From a virus (Duplodnaviria; Heunggongvirae; Uroviricota; Caudoviricetes): a stretch of DNA of 17,637 nt. The stretch's first letter is position 1. The number at the start of each line of letters is the position of its first letter. Below, piece by piece: positions 2,064 to 17,637 of the stretch. Under the pieces are notes generated by a model that did not search any database, was not told where the DNA came from, and saw only the letters and a program-made list of their open reading frames with translations. Location: IMG/VR virus record IMGVR_UViG_2579778784_000009, one strand, 5' to 3'. The translations under genes and the position numbers were made by a program.

Positions 2064-2090
2064 AATAATAAAAAAGGAGCCTGTAGCTCC
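2064..2090 (-). terminator. Putative intrinsic terminator in the leftward operon
   Basis: Hairpin GGAGC-CTGTA-GCTCC at 2076-2090. The plus-strand A-run at 2067-2075 becomes a U-run after the hairpin on the minus strand. Confidence 0.4.
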
Positions 2091-2596: not shown

Positions 2597-2757
2597 ACAG
2601 CCCCTCGTTTATTATTTATCTCCTCAGCCAGCCGCTGGGCTTTCAGTGGATTTTGGATAACAGAAAGGCCGGGAAATACCCAGCCTCGCTTTGTAACGGA
2701 GTAGACGAAAGTGATCGCGCCTACCCGGATATTATCGTGAGGATGCTTCATCGCCAT
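2569..2757 (-). CDS. Lambda orf60a-like small protein (62 aa)
   Basis: [30 protein letters not shown]... recalled as lambda orf60a. Lies immediately upstream of exo, as in lambda. Confidence 0.55.
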
Positions 2758-3428
2758 TGCTCCCCAAATACAAAACCAATTTCAGCCAGTGCCACGTCCA
2801 TTTTTTCGATGAACTCCGGCACCATCTCGTCAAAATTCGCCATGTACTTTTCATTCCGCTCAATCACGACATAATGCAGGCCTTCACGCTTCATACGCGG
2901 GTCATAGTTGGCAAAGTACCAGGCATCTTTTCGCGTCACCCACATGCTGTACTGCACCTGGGCCATGTAAGCCGATTTTATGGCCTCGAAACCACCGAGC
3001 CGGAACTTCATGAAATCCCGGGAGGTAAACGGGCATTTCAGTTCAAGGCCGTTGCCGTCACTGCATAAACCATCGGGAGAGCAGGCGGTGCGCATACTTT
3101 CGTCGCGATAGATGATCGGGGATTCAGTAACATTCACGCCGGAAGTGAATTCAAACAGGGTTCTGGCGTCGTTCTCGTACTGTTTTCCCCAGGCCAGCGC
3201 CTTAGCATTAACTTCCGGAGCCACACCGGTGCAAACCTCAGCCAGCAGGGTGTGGAAGTAGGACATTTTCATGTCAGGCCACTTCTTTCCTGAGCGGGGC
3301 TTTGCTATCACGTTGTGAACTTCTGAAGCGGTGATGACGCCGAGCCGTAATTTGTGCCATGCATCATCCCCCTGTTCGACAGCTCTCACGTCGATCCCGG
3401 TACGCTGCAGGATAATGTCCGGTGTCAT
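2748..3428 (-). CDS. exo: Lambda exonuclease (Red alpha)
   Basis: 226 aa; [54 protein letters not shown]... is essentially lambda Exo by recall. Confidence 0.95.
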
Positions 3429-4210
3429 GCTGCCACCTTCTGCTCAGTGGCTTTCTGTTTCAGGAATCCAAGAGCTTTCACTGCTTCGGCCTGTGTCAGT
3501 TCTGACGATGCGCGAATGTCGCGGCGAAATATCTGGGAACAGAGCGGCAATAAGTCGTCATCCCATGTTTTATCCAGGGCGATCAGCAGAGTGTTAATCT
3601 CCTGCATGGTTTCATCGTTAACCGGAGTGATGTCGCGTTCTGGCTGACGTTCTGCAGTGTATGCAGTATTTTCGACAATGCGCTCGGCTTCATCCTTGTC
3701 ATAGATACCAGCAAATCCGAAGGCCAGACGGGCACACTGAATCATGGCTTTATGCCGTAACATCCGTTTGGGATGCGACTGCCACGGCCCCGTGATTTCT
3801 CTGCCTTCGCGAGTTTTGAATGGTTCGCGGCGGCATTCATCCATCCATTCGGTAACGCAGATCGGATGATTACGGTCCTTGCGGTAAATCCGGCATGTAC
3901 AGGATTCATTGTCCTGCTCAAAGTCCATGCCATCAAACTGCTGGTTTTCATTGATGATGCGGGACCAGCCATCAACGCCCACCACCGGAACGATGCCGTT
4001 CTGCTTATCAGGGAAGGCGTAAATTTCTTTCGTCCACGGATTAAGGCCGTACTGGTTGGCGACGATCAACAATGCGATGAACTGCGCATCGCTGGCATCA
4101 CCTTTAAATGCTGTCTGGCGAAGAGTGGTGATCAGTTCCTGTGGGTCGACAGAATCCATGCCGACACGTTCAGCCAGCTTCCCTGCCAGCGTTGCGAGTG
4201 CTGTACTCAT
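3425..4210 (-). CDS. bet: Single-strand annealing protein Bet (Red beta)
   Basis: 261 aa; [66 protein letters not shown]... matches lambda Bet. Overlaps the exo start. Confidence 0.95.
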
Positions 4211-4215
4211 CCGTT

Positions 4216-4512
4216 TTATACCTCTGAATCAATATCAACCTGATGGTGAGCAATGGTTTCAACCATGTACCGGATGTGTTCTGCCATGCGCTCCTGAAAC
4301 TCAACATCGTCATCAAACGCACGGGTAATGGCTTTTTTGCTGGCCCCGTGGCGTTGCAAATGATCGATGCATAGCGATTCAAACAGGTGCTGGGGCAGGC
4401 CTTTTTCCATGTCGTCTGCCAGTTCTGCCTCTTTCTCTTCACGGGCGATCTGCTGGTAGTGACGCACCCAGCTCTGAGCCTCAAGACGATCCTGAATGTA
4501 ATAAGCGTTCAT
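4216..4512 (-). CDS. gam: Host-nuclease (RecBCD) inhibitor Gam, short form
   Basis: 98 aa starting [15 protein letters not shown], equal to the GamS portion of lambda Gam. AGGAG RBS upstream of ATG 4512. Confidence 0.9.
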
Positions 4513-4586
4513 GGCTGAACTCCTGAAATAGCTGTGAAAATATCGCCCGCGAAATGCCAGGCTGATTAGGAAAACAGGAAAGGGGG

Positions 4587-4997
4587 TTAGTGATTCAGGC
4601 CGTTGCCGCGTCCGTCGAGAAAAACTTCCACGAGCAAGTCACGGGTATAAGTGCGCTCGATGCCGCGATGCAGATAAAGCCGTCCGCGTAAATTAGCTGA
4701 TGCAGTCCAGGTACCATCTTTGTGTTTGACCAGCATTCCTGGCATGACCGCACCGCGATTAACGGTCTGTGTTCCGTAATGTTGATGAACCATAAAAACT
4801 CCTGCCCGTAAGCTGGGCTGCTGAACATATAGAGACTTCTGCGCGTATTCAGGCGGTGGATGGCCGCCGGTTGTCATAACTAAACCGCCTCGTTGAAGCG
4901 ACTGAGGTATGAAATGTTGAGTTAATTTCAGCTGGTCACACCGACGTTCACGCGTCCGTTTCACCCCTCGCACTCCCCGAAGCCTGCTGAAATTCAA
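4587..4997 (-). CDS. Hypothetical protein at the first position of the pL operon; start uncertain
   Basis: 136-aa ORF whose track start is TTG. Internal ATGs at 4877 (GAGG upstream) and 4793 (GGAG 5 nt upstream). Arg-rich N-terminal stretch ([15 protein letters not shown]). Confidence 0.35.
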
Positions 4998-5065
4998 ACT
5001 GCGGATCTAAGCGGTCATCGCAACGGTGAATCAGGTGGTTGCCGTATCGTTGTGTTGTTGCGATA

Positions 5066-5127
5066 TGGTGATAATAGCTATTGCTATTGGTGATATCAAT
5101 ACTTATTGCTATTGGTTGATGTGTTTT
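5066..5127 (-). promoter_or_regulatory. OL/pL-like leftward promoter with operator repeats
   Basis: Minus strand -35 TTGATA (plus 5094-5099), 17-nt spacer, -10 TATTAT (plus 5071-5076). TTGCTATTGG repeated at 5081-5090 and 5106-5115; the same 9-mer recurs in the cI-cro intergenic region. Confidence 0.55.
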
Positions 5128-5242
5128 GATATTAAATGTTTGATAGCAAAAAGAATTAATTTTGTGACTTGCATCGCATAGCGATAACTGAAGGGAGGAT
5201 GTGGTGGTTTTTCGAACGGTTTGTGTGATGAGGGGACAAAAG

Positions 5243-5268
5243 AAAACCCGGCACGGTGGCCGGGATTC
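5243..5268 (-). terminator. Putative intrinsic terminator ending the cI passenger operon
   Basis: Hairpin CCCGGC-ACGGTG-GCCGGG (5247-5264), followed on the minus strand by UUUUCUUUUG. Lies directly 3' of the ASCH gene stop. Confidence 0.5.
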
Positions 5269-5646
5269 TTACGCAGGTAGGTAAAGATATGATTGTGGTG
5301 GCTTAATATTACTACCTAGAGCAGAGATAGGAATTGGTTCTTTATATCTTTCCACTTCACCAATTTTTATTGCGTAGGCCTTTTCTCTACCTGAATAATA
5401 TGAGTCATAAAATTGCTTAGAAATACCTGCGTGCTTTTCCGTCTTTTTCCAAAGAGATTCCGGTTCGTCACTTAGTATTGATTCAATACGGAATTGACCA
5501 ACAACTTTACCTAATGGCATCGTGGCATAAATAACAACGGTGCTAATTTGCGGATTTTTGAATATACCTTTACGAAACTCGAACCGCTTTGTTCCGTTCA
5601 ATATTTTTTCTGCAAACTCAGGCTTAATGGATAATAAAACTTTCAT
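5269..5646 (-). CDS. ASCH-domain (PUA-like fold) protein, 125 aa
   Basis: N-terminus MKVLLSIKPEFAEKILNGTKRFEFRK fits the ASCH pattern. AT-rich. Overlaps the 3' end of the upstream gene by 23 nt. Confidence 0.7.
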   Translation of the reverse strand: MKVLLSIKPEFAEKILNGTKRFEFRKGIFKNPQISTVVIYATMPLGKVVGQFRIESILSDEPESLWKKTEKHAGISKQFYDSYYSGREKAYAIKIGEVERYKEPIPISALGSNIKPPQSYLYLPA

Positions 5647-6685
5647 TTATCTTGCCTAACTCGATGATCTTTAAGAACTGCTCATTTGTGAGTTTAAAGT
5701 GACTCCATCGGAATGCACGCGAACCATTTAGCCCCACATGATCTATTAAAATAGCACGATTGGGTCTCTTTGGCAAAGACAGATTGTATGTGAATCTTAT
5801 AATGAAAGGGTATCGACGTTCTTTATAGATTTTTCTGAGTTCATCTTCAGAAAATACGCTAAAACGAATACAATAGTCTACAAAACTATCTTCGCTTAAA
5901 AATTCAGAAATATTTTTTACGCTCTCAACTACACATAATGTACTGGCTACAGAACGATAGCGAGCTGGCCCTTTTTTGTCTCCGGTTCTATAGATGACAA
6001 TGATATCTCCTCTTTTCATTCCCATCACAGAACGCATTCCACATATGTAAATTTTATGAATGCTGTTAGCATGGGATATATCTTTGACAATATCTGGTGA
6101 TTCATTTACAAGTTTTGAATCAGGGAATAGTCTAGTGTGATATTCGGGATAAATCGCCAGTAAATATTTGTTGGCCCTTGATGTCATTATTCGAGGGTAA
6201 TCTAATAAAATATCACCATAAGGCTCATGCAAAGACCTCGCATATACAAACTCTTTCCCGTTATGTGTTTCTTTTTCACCATGAATGTAAAATCCGTACG
6301 TTTGGAAAAGTTTTATTAGATGGACGTGTTTGTCGAAAACAGTAACATAAATATCATCAGATTTTGATGAAAATGCATGGTCAAACGCTTTTTTTAGAAA
6401 TCGTTGTCCGCGAAGGGTGCCTTTAGATTCAAATTTGAATGTTCCTATCTTTAGATGACGTCCTGGTGGGAGCGCTGGATTAATGTCATTTGCATCATCA
6501 TTTTCTTTTAGATACATAAAACCTTCGATTTTATGCTTGTCATCATAGAGCACATAAGCTGATTCTCCTTCTCTGGCTTTTTTTTCTAACCAAAGAGGAA
6601 ACTCTTTATAATCTTTTTTTAAAGAGTCAAAAAATGGGTCATTGTGATCAAAATCAGAGAATTTCTCATATTTTAAAGTATCCAT
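5624..6685 (-). CDS. Uncharacterised protein (353 aa from ATG 6685; ORF extends to 6697) with GNAT-like N-terminal features
   Basis: Long AT-rich ORF. GGAG lies 6 nt before the second ATG. N-terminal half has the GNAT-like motif FQTYGFYIHGE. C-terminal half is unassigned. Confidence 0.7.
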   Translation of the reverse strand: MDTLKYEKFSDFDHNDPFFDSLKKDYKEFPLWLEKKAREGESAYVLYDDKHKIEGFMYLKENDDANDINPALPPGRHLKIGTFKFESKGTLRGQRFLKKAFDHAFSSKSDDIYVTVFDKHVHLIKLFQTYGFYIHGEKETHNGKEFVYARSLHEPYGDILLDYPRIMTSRANKYLLAIYPEYHTRLFPDSKLVNESPDIVKDISHANSIHKIYICGMRSVMGMKRGDIIVIYRTGDKKGPARYRSVASTLCVVESVKNISEFLSEDSFVDYCIRFSVFSEDELRKIYKERRYPFIIRFTYNLSLPKRPNRAILIDHVGLNGSRAFRWSHFKLTNEQFLKIIELGKINESFIIH

Positions 6686-6765
6686 TAAGTTCTCCATTCT
6701 AAAATGAATAATTAAGTTGTTTTACTGAATGAGCACAATGCCCGGTTGATAATTTTTAATTGGTA

Positions 6766-7458
6766 CTATCCATGCTTCCTATACGTCTGCGGCATGCTCC
6801 CAATAACTTTCCCGAAGATAAATACCCGGTTCATCTCATCTTTCTCGATCGGGTCCCACGGTGAGTAGCTTTTGTTATCAGAGATAACCAGCAGCTTATC
6901 CTTCATCATTTGCAGGCGCTTTACATGGGCTGTGTCGTCGTACAGAAACGCATAGATACCATCACCGTCGAAAGATTTAACCGTGATATCAACGAATAGA
7001 AGATCACCAGGTTCAATCGTTCCTGACATGCTGTCACCGCGTACGTTAATGATGCGGATATTTTCTGCCTTCCTACCATCGAACATGTGACGAGCATCGT
7101 CAAACGAGTACTCAACCGAGCGTAGAACTTCTACAAACTCACGGTTGATGACTCCCGGCCCGGCACTCACTTCTATATCAAGAACGTCAATTTTAAAGTA
7201 TTTGGAATAGCTGACAGCAGGCTTCCCTGATTGTTGACCGTCATTTCTCATCGGGCCTATGCCTGATGAGAGCCATTCTGTTCGAACACCCAATGCATTA
7301 GCTATTTCAACAATTTTTGTTGAGCCGCGCGCGTTGCCGCTTGTCAGTCTCCAGATTGTGGGTTGAGCTACGCCAGACGCCTTTGCAAGAGCGCCTTGAG
7401 ACATTCCAGATTGTTCCATCGCTAGGTTTAAGCGATCAGCAAGAGTTTCTTTTTTCAT
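6766..7458 (-). CDS. cI: CI-type prophage repressor (HTH plus S24 LexA-like peptidase domain)
   Basis: N-terminal HTH (SQGALAKASGVAQPTIWRL) and C-terminal VRGDSMSGTIEPGDLLFVD...VKRL (Ser/Lys dyad). Track start at 7494 is TTG. ATG at 7458 has no RBS and lies about 10 nt from a TATAAA, so the mRNA is probably leaderless like lambda cI from pRM. Confidence 0.85.
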   Translation of the reverse strand: MKKETLADRLNLAMEQSGMSQGALAKASGVAQPTIWRLTSGNARGSTKIVEIANALGVRTEWLSSGIGPMRNDGQQSGKPAVSYSKYFKIDVLDIEVSAGPGVINREFVEVLRSVEYSFDDARHMFDGRKAENIRIINVRGDSMSGTIEPGDLLFVDITVKSFDGDGIYAFLYDDTAHVKRLQMMKDKLLVISDNKSYSPWDPIEKDEMNRVFIFGKVIGSMPQTYRKHG

Positions 7459-7568
7459 AAGTTTTAATTTATACGCTTGCGTATTGATGGTCAAAACACG
7501 TTTTGCTATTGCTTGGATTAATACGCATTGCTATTATTTATTCATTGCAATACCAATAGGAATTGATA
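7459..7568. promoter_or_regulatory. OR-like divergent control region (pR, pRM, operators)
   Basis: Plus strand pR: -35 TTGCTT (7509-7514), 17-nt spacer, -10 TATTAT (7532-7537). TTGCTATTG at 7503, TTGCTATTA at 7528, related CATTGCAATA at 7544. Lies between divergent cI and cro. Confidence 0.6.
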
Positions 7569-7796
7569 ATGACAAATCAAACCATTCAACTCGCAATCAG
7601 TATTACAGGTAGTCAAAAACGACTGGCAGATCTATGCGGTGTAGCCCAACCCACAGTTTGGCGTTGGCTACACGGTGGCGGAATTGATGCCCGCTATGTA
7701 ATGAAAATTGTCTCAGCCACTGGTGGAAAGATTAAACCAGCAGATATTCGTCCCGACCTCGCACCATTGTTTAACGCGAGTAATTCTGCCGCCTAA
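7569..7796 (+). CDS. cro: Cro-like HTH regulator (YdaS-like)
   Basis: 75 aa from ATG 7569 with AGGA RBS. HTH motif SQKRLADLCGVAQPTVWRWL. First gene of the rightward operon, divergent from cI. Confidence 0.75.
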   Translation: MTNQTIQLAISITGSQKRLADLCGVAQPTVWRWLHGGGIDARYVMKIVSATGGKIKPADIRPDLAPLFNASNSAA

Positions 7797-7820
7797 ACTG
7801 CGGCGTTAACTGATAAGGCA

Positions 7821-10092: not shown

Positions 10093-10170
10093 TATTTAGG
10101 GTTATAGGTCTTAGCCCATTTTAAATGGAAGGCAGACATGCAGCCATGCATACTTCGCATGGCAACATAA

Positions 10171-10599
10171 TTATTTAGACAAACTATCTAATTTTTGCGT
10201 CGCTTTTTGTGTTAGGTCGCTGTAACTGATAAACCCTACGTTAGCACCTACAATTAACACTAAGAACACTAAGCTGCATATGGATAGAGTGGCAGATTTA
10301 TGCTTATGGAAAACAAAATATGCTACTATTGCACTTAATATGAAGGAAATGAATAGAAATATAGATGTTGATGTTTTTAGATATTTTTCAGGAAATAATG
10401 GGTGAGCAATAATGTATACAAGATTAAGTAGTATATAAATTGCTACCGGAATGAAAATCATGCTCCAGTGTGTATCTTTTTTGGGAGGGATTGGCTGCAA
10501 ATAATCAGACACCGTTTTTCCATCAGTTTCAAGAAGAATTACTAGATCTCTTACTTCACCACTGACTTGAGTGCCATCCTTAGTAGTAATGTTAATCAT
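10171..10599 (-). CDS. Small membrane protein (142 aa from ATG 10599), three predicted TM helices
   Basis: GGAGGG RBS 5 nt upstream of the ATG. Hydrophobic segments IFIPVAIYILLNLVYIIA, IFLFISFILSAIVAYFVF and LSICSLVFLVLIVGANVGFI. Very AT-rich. ATGA overlap with the upstream gene. Confidence 0.6.
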   Translation of the reverse strand: MINITTKDGTQVSGEVRDLVILLETDGKTVSDYLQPIPPKKDTHWSMIFIPVAIYILLNLVYIIAHPLFPEKYLKTSTSIFLFISFILSAIVAYFVFHKHKSATLSICSLVFLVLIVGANVGFISYSDLTQKATQKLDSLSK

Positions 10600-10973
10600 T
10601 TTTTCCCTCCAAATACGATTCCCTCTACGTCTTTGGAAGCTTTTTGTGATGACCACTCCTCTGAATCAGGTGATTTAATTAAAAATATTGTATCTCCATC
10701 AAAAATCGTATTTGTTCCGTAAAAATTTACATTTGATAGATCACCACCAAAAACCCTCTGCCCACTCGAGGTAATTGCCTCACCTAATTTAGTAAAATTA
10801 CCTGCAATAGATGATTTTCTTTTTCCACTTCTATTCAAAGTGGCTTTAATTACACCACCACCATCCTTAGAGTTAAATAATTGAATGTCCACTCCAGCAG
10901 TTGGTTGTATATATTTTGAAAGCTCTTTCTTGAACTTGTTAATATATTTATCTTTGTTTTCTTTGTTGGTCAT
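10596..10973 (-). CDS. Hypothetical Lys/Gly-rich soluble protein (125 aa)
   Basis: ATG at 10973. Translationally coupled to the membrane protein gene. AT-rich, antisense to the early-right operon. Confidence 0.6.
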   Translation of the reverse strand: MTNKENKDKYINKFKKELSKYIQPTAGVDIQLFNSKDGGGVIKATLNRSGKRKSSIAGNFTKLGEAITSSGQRVFGGDLSNVNFYGTNTIFDGDTIFLIKSPDSEEWSSQKASKDVEGIVFGGKK

Positions 10974-11240
10974 TGGTTAGATCCATAGTTCTGGCTGTGA
11001 TTAGGTGAAAGTATACAAGGTTTTTAAAGCGAAGATCACTGTTTTGGCTTCAAGATAGTTTTGATTTATCGTAATCAATCCGCCATAATCCTCTCATCGG
11101 AGCCTGAACAACTCCGGTGACTTCTGCGCATTTAAGGGGACTTAAATGCGACCACAATCTGAACTCATCACCTTGTCACAGATGCAGAAATGCACCTGCG
11201 ATGTCTTGCATCCAGCGTTTGATCTCTGCGGAGGTGAAGC

Positions 11241-11696
11241 GTGAACCTCCCACAAGATGGCATCAAATTACATCGCGGTAACTTCACCGCTGTCGGTCAG
11301 CAGATCCAGACTTATCTGGAAGACGGCAAATGCTTTCGCATGGTGCTTAAACCGTGGCGCGAGAGACGCAGTCTTTCCCAGAATGCACTCAGCCACATGT
11401 GGTACAGCGAAATCAGTGAATACCTCATCAGCAGGGGTAAAACGTTCGCCACTCCAGCTTGGGTAAAAGATGCTCTCAAACACACATATCTCGGTTATGA
11501 AACCAAAGACCTGGTTGATGTCGTAACCGGTGATATCACCACTATCCAGTCGTTACGCCATACCTCCGATCTTGATACCGGAGAGATGTATGTCTTCCTG
11601 TGTAAGGTTGAAGCCTGGGCGGTGAATATTGGCTGCCACCTGACTATTCCGCAGAGCTGCGAGTTCCAGCTGCTCCGCGACAAGCAGGAGGCGTAA
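11241..11696 (+). CDS. ninB: NinB-family recombination protein
   Basis: 151 aa from GTG 11241 with [25 protein letters not shown] resembles the NinB core motif. Confidence 0.7.
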
Positions 11697-12645: not shown

Positions 12646-12730
12646 AGTCAGAGATAACAATCAACTAATACTGTTTTGTTGATTTTTGCTTGTAATTGGC
12701 GTTCTGGTCTGATTTTTGTGGAGTAAGTTG

Positions 12731-13114
12731 ATGCGTGATATTCAGATGGTTCTTGAGCGTTGGGGTGCGTGGGCGGCTAATAATCATGAAGATGTGACCT
12801 GGTCGTCCATTGCCGCCGGTTTTAAGGGATTAATTCCTTCAAAAGTAAAATCTCGCCCGCAATGTTGTGACGATGACGCGATGATCATTTGCGGGTGCAT
12901 GGCCCGTCTGAAAAAGAACAACAGCGATTTACACGATTTATTAGTAGATTATTATGTATGTGGTATGACATTCATGTCACTGGCAAGTAAGCATTGCTGC
13001 TCGGATGGTTATATCGGGAAAAGGTTACAGAAGGCTGAGGGCATAATTGAAGGGATGTTAATGGCATTAGATATCCGGTTAGATATGGATATCGTTGCTA
13101 ATAATTCTAATTGA
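12731..13114 (+). CDS. Q: Late-gene antiterminator Q (QuuD / phage 82-21 type)
   Basis: From ATG 12731 with [41 protein letters not shown]... recalled as DLP12 QuuD. Confidence 0.85.
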
Positions 13115-13302: not shown

Positions 13303-14385
13303 TTAGAACTGATAAACCAGACCTACAGCGACGATGTCGTCGGTATCAATACCAGCTGTTTTGGTAAACTTACTATCGTCAATTAAGTTGATTTTGTAAT
13401 CAACAAAAGTGGACATGTTTTTATTAAAGTAGTAAGTAGCACCGACATCGACATACTTGACTAAGTCTCGGTCACCATGAACACCAAGGTCTTTACCTTT
13501 TGACTGAAGGTAAGCAACAGATGGACGCAGACCGAAGTCAAACTGATATTGTGCTACTGCTTCAAAGTTTTGTGCTTTGTTTGCAATATGGTTATTACCA
13601 AAAACGGTCATATTCTGAGTTTCAGAATATGTGGTAGCCAGATAGATATTGTTCGCATCATATTTCAGGCCTGCAGCCCATACTTCCGCATTTTTGCCGG
13701 AGGCATTGAATTTGCTCTTACCATAGGCGACCTGACCGTCAGTGCGATCTGATTTAGCATAGGTTGCACCCACGCCGAATCCTTCATACTCATAAGTAGT
13801 GGAGAAACCGAAACCATCACCATTGGCTTCAGTTACGTCAGTGCGGTCATTTTTACCCTGATACTGAGCAGCAAAGTTCAGGCCATCGACCAGACCAAAG
13901 AAGTCGTTGTTACGATAAGTTGCAACACCAGTAGTGCGACCAGTCATGAACACATCTGTTTGGGTCCAGGTATCACCACCGAATTCTGGCAGAACGTCAG
14001 TCCACGCACCGATGTCGTATGCTACACCGTAGTTACGGCCGTAATCGATTGAGCCGTAATCACCAAATTTCAGGCCTGCAAATGCAAGACGGGTTTTGTC
14101 TTTGGAAGAACCTTGAGATTCAGCACGGTTGCCTTTGAATTCATATTCCCACTGACCGAAACCAGTCAGTTGATCGTTGATTTGGGTTTCACCTTTGAAG
14201 CCAAGACGGGCATAAGTAGTATCACCATCATCTGCATCATTAGAGGAGAAGTAGTGCTTGGCATTAACTTTCCCGTATAGATCCAGCTTGTTACTGTCTT
14301 TATTATAAATTTCAGCTGCCTGAGCAGACATCGCCATCAGTACTGATGCAGCTACAGCAGAAATTGCCACTGTTAATTTTTTCAT
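13303..14385 (-). CDS. nmpC: OmpC-family porin, NmpC/Lc type (phage-borne)
   Basis: Signal peptide [23 protein letters not shown], then [16 protein letters not shown]...VGLVYQF, a classic general porin. The track ORF has a spurious 20-aa N-terminal extension. Confidence 0.9.
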
Positions 14386-14811
14386 TGTACGCCCTTTTTT
14401 TGAACTATTATTAAAAAATGATGTCACTGCGCGATAAATATTCATCTAATCAATGTGATTATTTCAAGATGTAAGTTTTAGTTTCTCATTTAATTTGTGA
14501 AGTAGATCTCTATTTTTATCGGAACCTTTTCTATCTAATCCTATTCATGGCTCTTGTCTGAACAAAAATAAATCTATTAGCTAATTTATATTAATGGCAC
14601 TTATTTATAAGTGCTCTATAATTCTTTAGCTTAATTTAAACAAACTAAAAATAACATCGGAAATTATTAACTGGTTATTTGTTGAAGTTTTCTTATGCAT
14701 TTGTGGTGGTGTTTTGAACACTCGGTGGCATTCTCACAAATATCATTTAGTAGTTTACGTACGTAAAAAATTGGTTATGCTGTTAAGAGTGGTTACTTCG
14801 TCACACAGCTT

Positions 14812-14845
14812 AAACCCGCCGTCGAGCGGGTTTTTCCATTTTTTG
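14812..14845 (+). terminator. Intrinsic terminator upstream of the lysis genes
   Basis: AAACCCGC-CGTCGA-GCGGGTTT hairpin followed by TTTTTCCATTTTTTG, about 130 bp before the holin start. Confidence 0.6.

Positions 14846-15188: not shown

Positions 15189-15189
<1 letters not shown>
14974..15189 (+). CDS. S: Class II holin/antiholin, phage 21 S type (dual-start)
   Basis: 71 aa, MKSMDK dual-start motif, GAGGTGGGG RBS. Matches S21 by recall. Stop overlaps the endolysin ATG. Confidence 0.9.

Positions 15190-17637
<2,448 letters not shown>

Follow-up and report, generated by a model that had tools for sequence, protein, structure and literature searches.

How is the early-left operon of a lambdoid prophage expressed when neither an N antiterminator nor a nut site accompanies it? 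This question is raised by the pL region of a 17,637-nucleotide stretch of viral DNA (IMG/VR record IMGVR_UViG_2579778784_000009, Caudoviricetes; hereafter the window), which represents the early region of a lambdoid, Bievrevirus-type prophage. A first-pass annotation had described a leftward promoter, a first open reading frame (ORF) with an arginine-rich N-terminus and a leader without lambda-type signals, and it regarded the mechanism of early-left antitermination as unclear. We describe the locus as a pL promoter with its operators, an untranslated leader of about 270 nucleotides (nt) and the gene kil, in a prophage without N that probably reads through its early-left operon without antitermination. 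On the best reading, the lack of N, nut and put is explained by the loss of the terminator tL1 and not by a hidden antiterminator.

The pL promoter and the first gene of the operon

The pL promoter (5071-5099, minus strand) comprises a −35 element TTGATA (5099-5094), a 17-nt spacer and a −10 element TATTAT (5076-5071), and it is the top minus-strand match of a promoter scan (10/12). It is embedded in the oL operator repeats (5072-5116). Here the 13-mer ACCAATAGCAATA occurs twice, at 5116-5104 and 5091-5079, and the palindromic core CAATANNTATTG is matched at 5097-5108 and 5072-5083. This palindrome has 23 matches against 11.2 ± 3.9 in shuffled sequences, none of 200 shuffles reaching 23, and the matches are concentrated at 5072-5108 and in oR (7519-7565). 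In addition, oL and oR share a direct repeat of 49 nt with 73% identity. The promoter scan, the repeats and the oL/oR similarity thus agree with the promoter proposed earlier amid operator repeats. The predicted transcription start is close to A5064. Homology among prophages with two different operator/promoter sets begins exactly at 5064, where all of them carry a purine (A or G), which fits a transcription start at this position. A third type joins the homology at about 5030.

Identity to the Escherichia phages 4A7 and Lambda_4C10 is 97% over positions 4400-5300 of the window, and Perceval (genus Bievrevirus) reaches 96%. Phages 4A7, Perceval and the PhiR series are isolates which share the pL region of the window; the arrangement is therefore functional.

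Judged by homology, the first gene of the operon is the already-known kil, coding for a cell-division inhibitor of the KilR/phi80 type. It occupies 4587-4793 on the minus strand, stop codon included, and starts at ATG 4793. The ORF originally listed here (4587-4997) opens with TTG and spans 136 codons, of which residues 69-136 are the genuine gene and Met69 its start. An AGGAG ribosome-binding site (4799-4803, minus strand) is located 5 nt before this ATG and is unchanged in 47 distinct relatives. The 68-residue form matches phrog_294, ‘Kil protein for bacterial septation inhibition’, with E = 1.3e-37, and within the 136-residue frame the PHROGs match is restricted to residues 60-136. The NCBIfam profile NF008465 (FtsZ inhibitor, KilR) aligns from Met69 over positions 1-70 of 73 (E = 1.8e-17), with a score below the 92-bit cutoff of the subfamily. 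The protein shares 36% identity with K-12 KilR (BLASTP E = 9e-13), 42% with phi80 Kil and 85% with HK225 Kil, and in the alignment the HK225 and phi80 proteins begin at the same residue as Met69 (MV(H/N)QHYGT and MINHYGT). An identical 68-residue protein, named ‘cell division inhibitor protein’, is found on at least 1000 contigs. All variable sites of kil among relatives fall at third codon positions (18/18), in loci preselected for 100% protein identity. The function of the family, a block of cell division via FtsZ, is assigned to the window protein by homology.

Within the pL operon, kil has the immunity region on one side and the recombination genes on the other, as in phi80, HK225, KO-TP1 and Rac. 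Rac KilR and phi80 Kil are homologues with the same start, a similar size (69-73 residues against 68) and the same place before the recombination genes, although they are only 36-42% identical to the window protein. Furthermore, kil is the first gene after pL in the window, whereas another gene and a terminator precede it in phi80 and HK225. The Kil protein of lambda (47 residues) is unrelated to that of the window, with no Pfam match. It had been stated that kil, cIII and ral are all missing between gam and pL. For cIII and ral this holds, as a single gene lies between gam and pL, but according to phrog_294 and NF008465 that gene is kil.

What, then, is the arginine-rich stretch? It is present as claimed, at residues 5-19 (15 residues) of the TTG-initiated frame, but its codons lie upstream of the real start ATG 4793 and correspond to a translation, in the kil frame, of the G-rich leader segment 4985-4941. 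The Arg, Gly and Val codons arise because the RNA is G-rich here (5025-4922; G content 0.37, C/G about 0.5). We collected 80 IMG/VR loci encoding an identical Kil, which gave 61 distinct sequences over promoter, leader and kil. In 21 of the 61 the arginine-rich frame is interrupted by a stop or an indel: a C-to-T change at 4904 creates an in-frame TAG in 15, four have a frame-shifting insertion of 5 nt between 4926 and 4925, and two have a frame-shifting 1-nt indel. Segregating sites in 4878-4997 are distributed 9/6/6 over codon positions 1/2/3, without codon periodicity. No Pfam family matches the arginine-rich part even at E ≤ 10, and the exact 136-residue protein is absent from a collection of about 15 billion proteins. 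RefSeq has no annotated feature over 4800-5064 among the E. coli genomes listed. The arginine-rich ‘N-terminus’ is thus a read-through of the untranslated leader and not a conserved ORF.

These results bear directly on the idea that an arginine-rich, N-like protein, initiated at TTG 4997 or GTG 4964 and acting alone or fused to Kil, antiterminates pL. Some features are compatible with such a protein. GGAG stands 7 nt before GTG 4964, in 40 of the 61 distinct relatives the frame continues uninterrupted into kil, and in one variant (L008) ATG replaces this GTG. Moreover, its RTRERR is superficially like the TRRRERR motif of lambda N. However, relatives disagree on the C-terminus (stop at 4904, frameshift or Kil fusion), some of them have Cys or Trp in place of motif arginines, and GTG 4964 is lost in L055. 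The segment is neither periodic in its codons nor matched by the N, N36 or Nun families, there is neither a boxA/boxB target nor a further site in the pR operon, and no gene caller has produced the exact protein. PHROGs and NCBIfam report only Kil for this ORF, a clear homology to a non-antiterminator function of the kind named beforehand as a refutation of the first interpretation; that the remainder of the protein does not resemble N was rightly observed, its C-terminal half being Kil. We consider an N-like antiterminator encoded here extremely improbable. The likeness to lambda N and nutL is confined to the position in the genome, the first stretch after pL, and to an arginine run in the frame. 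Unlike the lambda system, the window has no conserved ORF, no N match, no boxA/boxB, no site in pR and no intrinsic terminator of the tL1 type.

An untranslated leader and its 3′ module

The untranslated leader extends over about 270 nt, from 5064 to 4794 on the minus strand, and consists of two parts: a lineage-specific 5′ half and a widely shared 3′ module. The 5′ half (4915-5064, minus strand; 150 nt) contains a possible 5′-terminal stem, then a C-rich stretch and then the G-rich stretch 4985-4941. The predicted stem pairs 5065-5057 with 5024-5016, and further helices are predicted. Over the whole leader, stretches in which C exceeds G are mild, with C/G around 1.5 at 5064-4987 and 4934-4831. 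The 150 nt are confined to Bievrevirus-type phages and prophages, and they occur in 2198 of 5426 complete E. coli genomes (about 40%), with no annotated feature beneath them. Comparisons of the 5′ leader with the leaders of phi80, KO-TP1, HK225, ENT1 and HK022 gave z values from −0.9 to 2.0, none significant.

The leader of another kil gene is on record, as the kilR 5′ untranslated region of K-12 Rac yields the small RNA KilS (b4833; PMC8175672). KilS (L094:4406-4503, minus strand) likewise belongs to a prophage with YdaS/YdaT-type immunity, but it ends at a terminator of its own whereas the window leader has none. The two show no sequence similarity, since the alignment of the leader with the Rac region upstream of kilR, KilS included, scores within the range of shuffled sequences. 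A separate svsR small RNA, from the NC-SV prophage, sits at the cI 3′ end and was set aside as irrelevant to the leader.

The 3′ module (4912-4852, 61 nt) starts with CAUACC, continues with a hairpin of variable stem and ends with the near-invariant UUAUGACAACCGGCGGCCAUCCACCG. The hairpin (4874-4912, minus strand) is formed by a 5′ arm at 4912-4895, a loop at 4894-4892 and a 3′ arm at 4891-4874, and its stem pairs a GAGG Shine-Dalgarno-like box and the AUG of a short upstream ORF (uORF). This uORF (MTTGGHPPP; 4851-4877, minus strand, with its ATG at 4877-4875) begins within the near-invariant 28-nt core 4879-4852, which also harbors a small GGCGG/CCGCC hairpin (4868-4864 with 4856-4852). After the PPP, the frame and the length of the uORF differ among relatives: it spans 11-30 codons, in some cases overlapping the next start, or is fused. 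In the lineage of the window it has no stop and continues in frame into kil, and some genome annotations list this fused form of 96 residues as a protein. The nucleotides GCGCAGAAGTCT are retained in different frames among relatives, and their conservation is therefore at the level of RNA or DNA.

The stretch 4914-4852 is also found in phi80, HK225, the Klebsiella phage KO-TP1 and Enterobacter phages such as ENT1. A scan with an exact pattern, in which the 26-nt core was fixed and the stem left free, added 17 further loci in genomes of Enterobacter, Citrobacter, Scandinavium and Huaxiibacter. The coordinates of the module in relatives are L003:3502-3562, L004:3003-3063, L092:1503-1563 and L093:1500-1560, together with loci L095-L111. 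Across 15 divergent sequences, seven base pairs are changed on both sides (36 cells), and 97.5% of the hairpin cells are paired, a higher share than in the shuffles (85.1%; 0/500). Covariation scores 0.383, whereas slid partners give 0.066 at most. Folding of four independent sequences by minimum free energy returned this hairpin each time, with z between −2.5 and −4.7. A covariance model of the module, R2, scores 87 bits at 4852-4912 and 76-87 bits across the homologous modules. It finds exactly one copy each in the window, the whole phi80 genome, HK225, KO-TP1 and ENT1, and nothing in K-12 Rac. With a single copy per phage, the module is not a nut-like pair. Rfam holds no family for it; the 3′ module is a conserved, covarying RNA element, unannotated and absent from this RNA family library.

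Since the frame from ATG 4877 runs into kil, the true product could be a Kil extended at its N-terminus to 96 residues. This frame is open in 61 of 61 relatives, many genomes list the long form as a gene product (‘prophage Kil protein’ in O157:H7 TW14359, for instance), and the PHROG profile aligns nine residues upstream of Met69. Against this, KilR, HK225 Kil and phi80 Kil all begin at the Met69 position, a strong AGGAG precedes ATG 4793 while ATG 4877 is buried in the hairpin, and in other genera the uORF stands apart from kil and differs in length and frame. Nor is there any excess of third-position changes in 4794-4877. We regard the extended protein as unlikely and retain ATG 4793 as the start.

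What the module does is a different matter. Most plausibly it controls translation, and perhaps access of Rho, where the toxic kil region begins. In its most elaborate version, the leader would be an attenuator dependent on Rho and translation that limits the toxic kil, with translation of the uORF and a stall at PPP gating the loading of Rho. The hairpin that hides the Shine-Dalgarno-like box and the AUG is in line with this proposal, as are the retention of the uORF start while length and frame vary, the rho-dependent tL1B which the phi80 record annotates between module and kil, and the mild excess of C over G. In Rac, kilR is reportedly silenced through Rho/NusG-dependent termination. However, the loading of Rho is hypothetical, the C/G ratios are modest and the role of PPP is speculative. 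In the lineage of the window, the uORF has no stop, so that ribosomes would continue into kil. Such an attenuator is possible, although we lean against it in this complete form.

Antitermination signals and terminators

The next step is to ask whether an antitermination system lies anywhere in the window. The absence of lambda-type boxA and boxB from the leader, reported earlier, was borne out by a boxA scan, which found no boxA-like site in the leader and a chance number of matches in the window as a whole (29 against 31.3 expected). Profile searches with Pfam, PHROGs and NCBIfam detected no N-family protein among the early ORFs of the window, of which Q is the only one that belongs to an antiterminator family. 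An N-like gene with a nut site at another place, which had been considered as an alternative, was thus not found in the window either. A local alignment of the leader with the pR arm returned only chance 8-9-mers and no leader-like copy in the pR arm. A similarity of the leader's GGUGAAACGGACGCGUGAACGUC to GGUGAAGCGUGAACCUCC (11231-11254) was attributed to chance. Literature searches on phi80 N/nutL and on Perceval brought up no report of antitermination in this lineage.

A put family is missing from Rfam, as even the put sites of HK022 itself go undetected in an Rfam search. We therefore built a put covariance model, R1, from HK022 putL and putR and six putL homologues, with the published structure (PMC9378689). 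This model recovers HK022 putL with 99.6 bits and putR with 56.2 bits. Applied to the window, it finds nothing in the leader; the best match (10.3 bits, E about 1.2) is on the other strand inside bet. No second put copy was found in the pR operon by the R1 scan or the alignment of leader and pR arm. Rfam searches of the whole window gave no match at the gathering threshold, and at E ≤ 10 the segment 4560-5150 had matches at chance level only. N, nut and put are absent from the window.

Could the leader nevertheless replace N as a cis-acting, polymerase-modifying RNA, with its 5′ 150 nt or the hairpin module as an analogue of put? The comparison with HK022 is attractive, as putL is likewise a conserved non-coding RNA that starts at pL +1 in a lambdoid phage without N. 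The window leader begins at pL +1, is conserved from +1 across two immunity types, is more conserved than the synonymous sites of kil, and is very widespread in a phage without N. Unlike put, however, it does not match the put model, it occurs just once and not in the pR operon, and its effect on the polymerase is only hypothetical. In the relatives, the hairpin module is situated downstream and not upstream of the terminator, and the 5′ half has no structural support. These observations make a put-like role improbable. We are hardly more inclined to the wider claim that the 270-nt leader is a new cis-acting regulatory RNA which lets a whole lambdoid lineage do without N. If this were true, the 5′ half might act on elongation, or else Rho-dependent termination or the translation of the toxic kil region might be under the control of the module.

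A likely answer emerges from the terminators. In phi80, HK225, KO-TP1 and ENT1, the module starts 0-10 nt past the T-run of an intrinsic terminator. A terminator directly precedes it in 16 of the 16 genome loci with enough upstream sequence, L104 showing only a weak hairpin ahead of its T-run. This terminator ends a first, variable pL gene: the ‘N’ of phi80 (with tL1A), gp38 of HK225 and gp28 of KO-TP1. In the window, the homology begins inside the T-run of the terminator (ATTTCATACC), and its CAACATTTCATACC has no hairpin and T-run upstream. Thus, the region after tL1 in phi80, HK225, KO-TP1, ENT1 and the enterobacterial prophages, among them those of Enterobacter, Citrobacter and Klebsiella, is headed by the same 61-nt module, but there a terminator and a variable first gene come before it, whereas the lineage of the window has an unrelated 150-nt leader instead.

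Downstream, the minus strand from 5064 to 2100 contains only weak candidates for intrinsic terminators, at 4644-4628, 4562-4545, 4092-4074 and 2687-2665. The first convincing terminator after pL (2070-2090, minus strand) consists of GGAGCTACAGGCTCC at 2090-2076 followed by TTTTTT, and it sits between an orf61-like gene and a DksA-like gene, xis and int.

From these data, we propose the following course of events. The first pL gene and its terminator would have been replaced by 150 nt in the lineage of the window, with the junction inside the T-run. A transcript from pL would then reach kil, gam, bet and exo, and the orf60a-, 63- and 61-like genes, without encountering an intrinsic terminator until about 2090-2076. 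Antitermination would not be needed because the tL1 terminator of the relatives is missing here, and early-left expression would proceed without an N-type mechanism. The hairpin/uORF module most likely tunes the toxic kil region, through translation of the uORF and possibly access of Rho. The mechanism of early-left expression, previously left unclear, was indeed a genuine question in a prophage with no N and no nut; the absence of the terminator upstream of the module is its likely answer.

Several points weigh against this picture. Rho-dependent terminators are unpredictable here, and an untranslated leader with a mild excess of C over G could attenuate transcription. The good intrinsic terminator at 2090-2076 still precedes xis and int. 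The leader taken over its whole length folds no better than shuffles (z = +0.78). A consensus fold from the shallow alignment of 47 close relatives has one-sided changes only, with no double compensatory pair, and its shuffle control is uninformative. The diversity of the leader, 2-6 times below that of kil third codon positions (π 0.008-0.028 against 0.048), speaks for the picture, but the comparison draws on loci picked for an identical Kil protein. Lastly, before it reaches Q, transcription from pR has to pass the hairpin that follows P (10099-10117) and a pair of opposing genes (10171-10973), and some antitermination or internal promoters may still be needed in the pR operon.

The relatives that retain a terminator present a further observation. 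Their long pL leaders are conserved among phi80, KO-TP1 and ENT1 (L003:2770-3186, L092:845-1283, L093:1260-1320), including AAAGCATTTCTCCCGCATCAGCGGGTAACGACAGAGGGTAAG just before the first ORF, while the first ORF is wholly different: the phi80 ‘N’ has 98 residues, KO-TP1 gp28 has 65 and the ENT1 product about 51. The phi80 ‘N’ has no N-family match in profile searches, and the phi80 record lists a putative nutL and no nutR. The label ‘N’ in phi80 may be positional only.

Gene order of the window and implications

The early-left order of the window is pL, kil, gam, bet, exo. After kil, the next gene of the operon is gam (4216-4512, minus strand; Pfam PF06064, E = 1.4e-64), then bet (3425-4210) and exo (2748-3428), with int, xis and small ORFs at the left end of the gene order, before exo.

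On the other side of pL, just upstream of oL, an intrinsic terminator (5237-5264, minus strand; CCCGGCCACCGTGCCGGG then TTTTCTTTTG) ends the transcript of cI, a 357-residue gene and an ASCH-domain gene. The ASCH-domain gene (125 residues) and the 357-residue gene (phrog_6345) lie at 5269-6697 (minus strand) between cI and oL, at the position of rexAB. The pair is AT-rich and has its own terminator (5264-5247), and Perceval carries different genes there. It is possibly an accessory or defence cassette.

Beyond this pair follow cI (6766-7494) and oR, and to the right of oR a YdaS-type cro, a YdaT-type cII, O, P and two leftward genes. The genes ninB through RusA come next, and then Q (12716-13114). 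A hairpin GCCGC-CUAAACU-GCGGC (7785-7815, plus strand) overlaps the stop of cro in the 25-nt gap between cro and cII; it is in the same position as nutR/tR1 of lambda and has no T-run. Leftward genes are found within the rightward operons, two between P and ninB (10171-10973, minus strand) and one of 380 residues between Q and the holin gene (13303-14445, minus strand), so that transcription from both pR and pR′ has to traverse leftward inserts. A candidate pR′ (14594-14622) and tR′ (14812-14833) are located past the second of these inserts.

At the right end, the ORFs 15872-16618 (an IstB/DnaC-like ATPase; phrog_50, phrog_27475) and 16615-17637 resemble an IS21-family element (15644-17637, minus strand). 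It is inserted just past the holin gene and an endolysin ORF of 134 residues (15189-15593), and the lysis cassette may be interrupted by it.

For annotation, these results mean that the long TTG-started ORF should be dropped together with any N-like label, and that kil should be given as 68 residues from 4793. For the biology of these phages, they imply that the early-left operon works without N, nut or put in a prophage lineage that is very common in E. coli, apparently because tL1 is missing. The 3′ module is shared by phi80-type phages and enterobacterial prophages and heads their kil region. Given the toxicity of Kil and the link of KilR to Rho silencing, the module is a reasonable target for work on prophage silencing.

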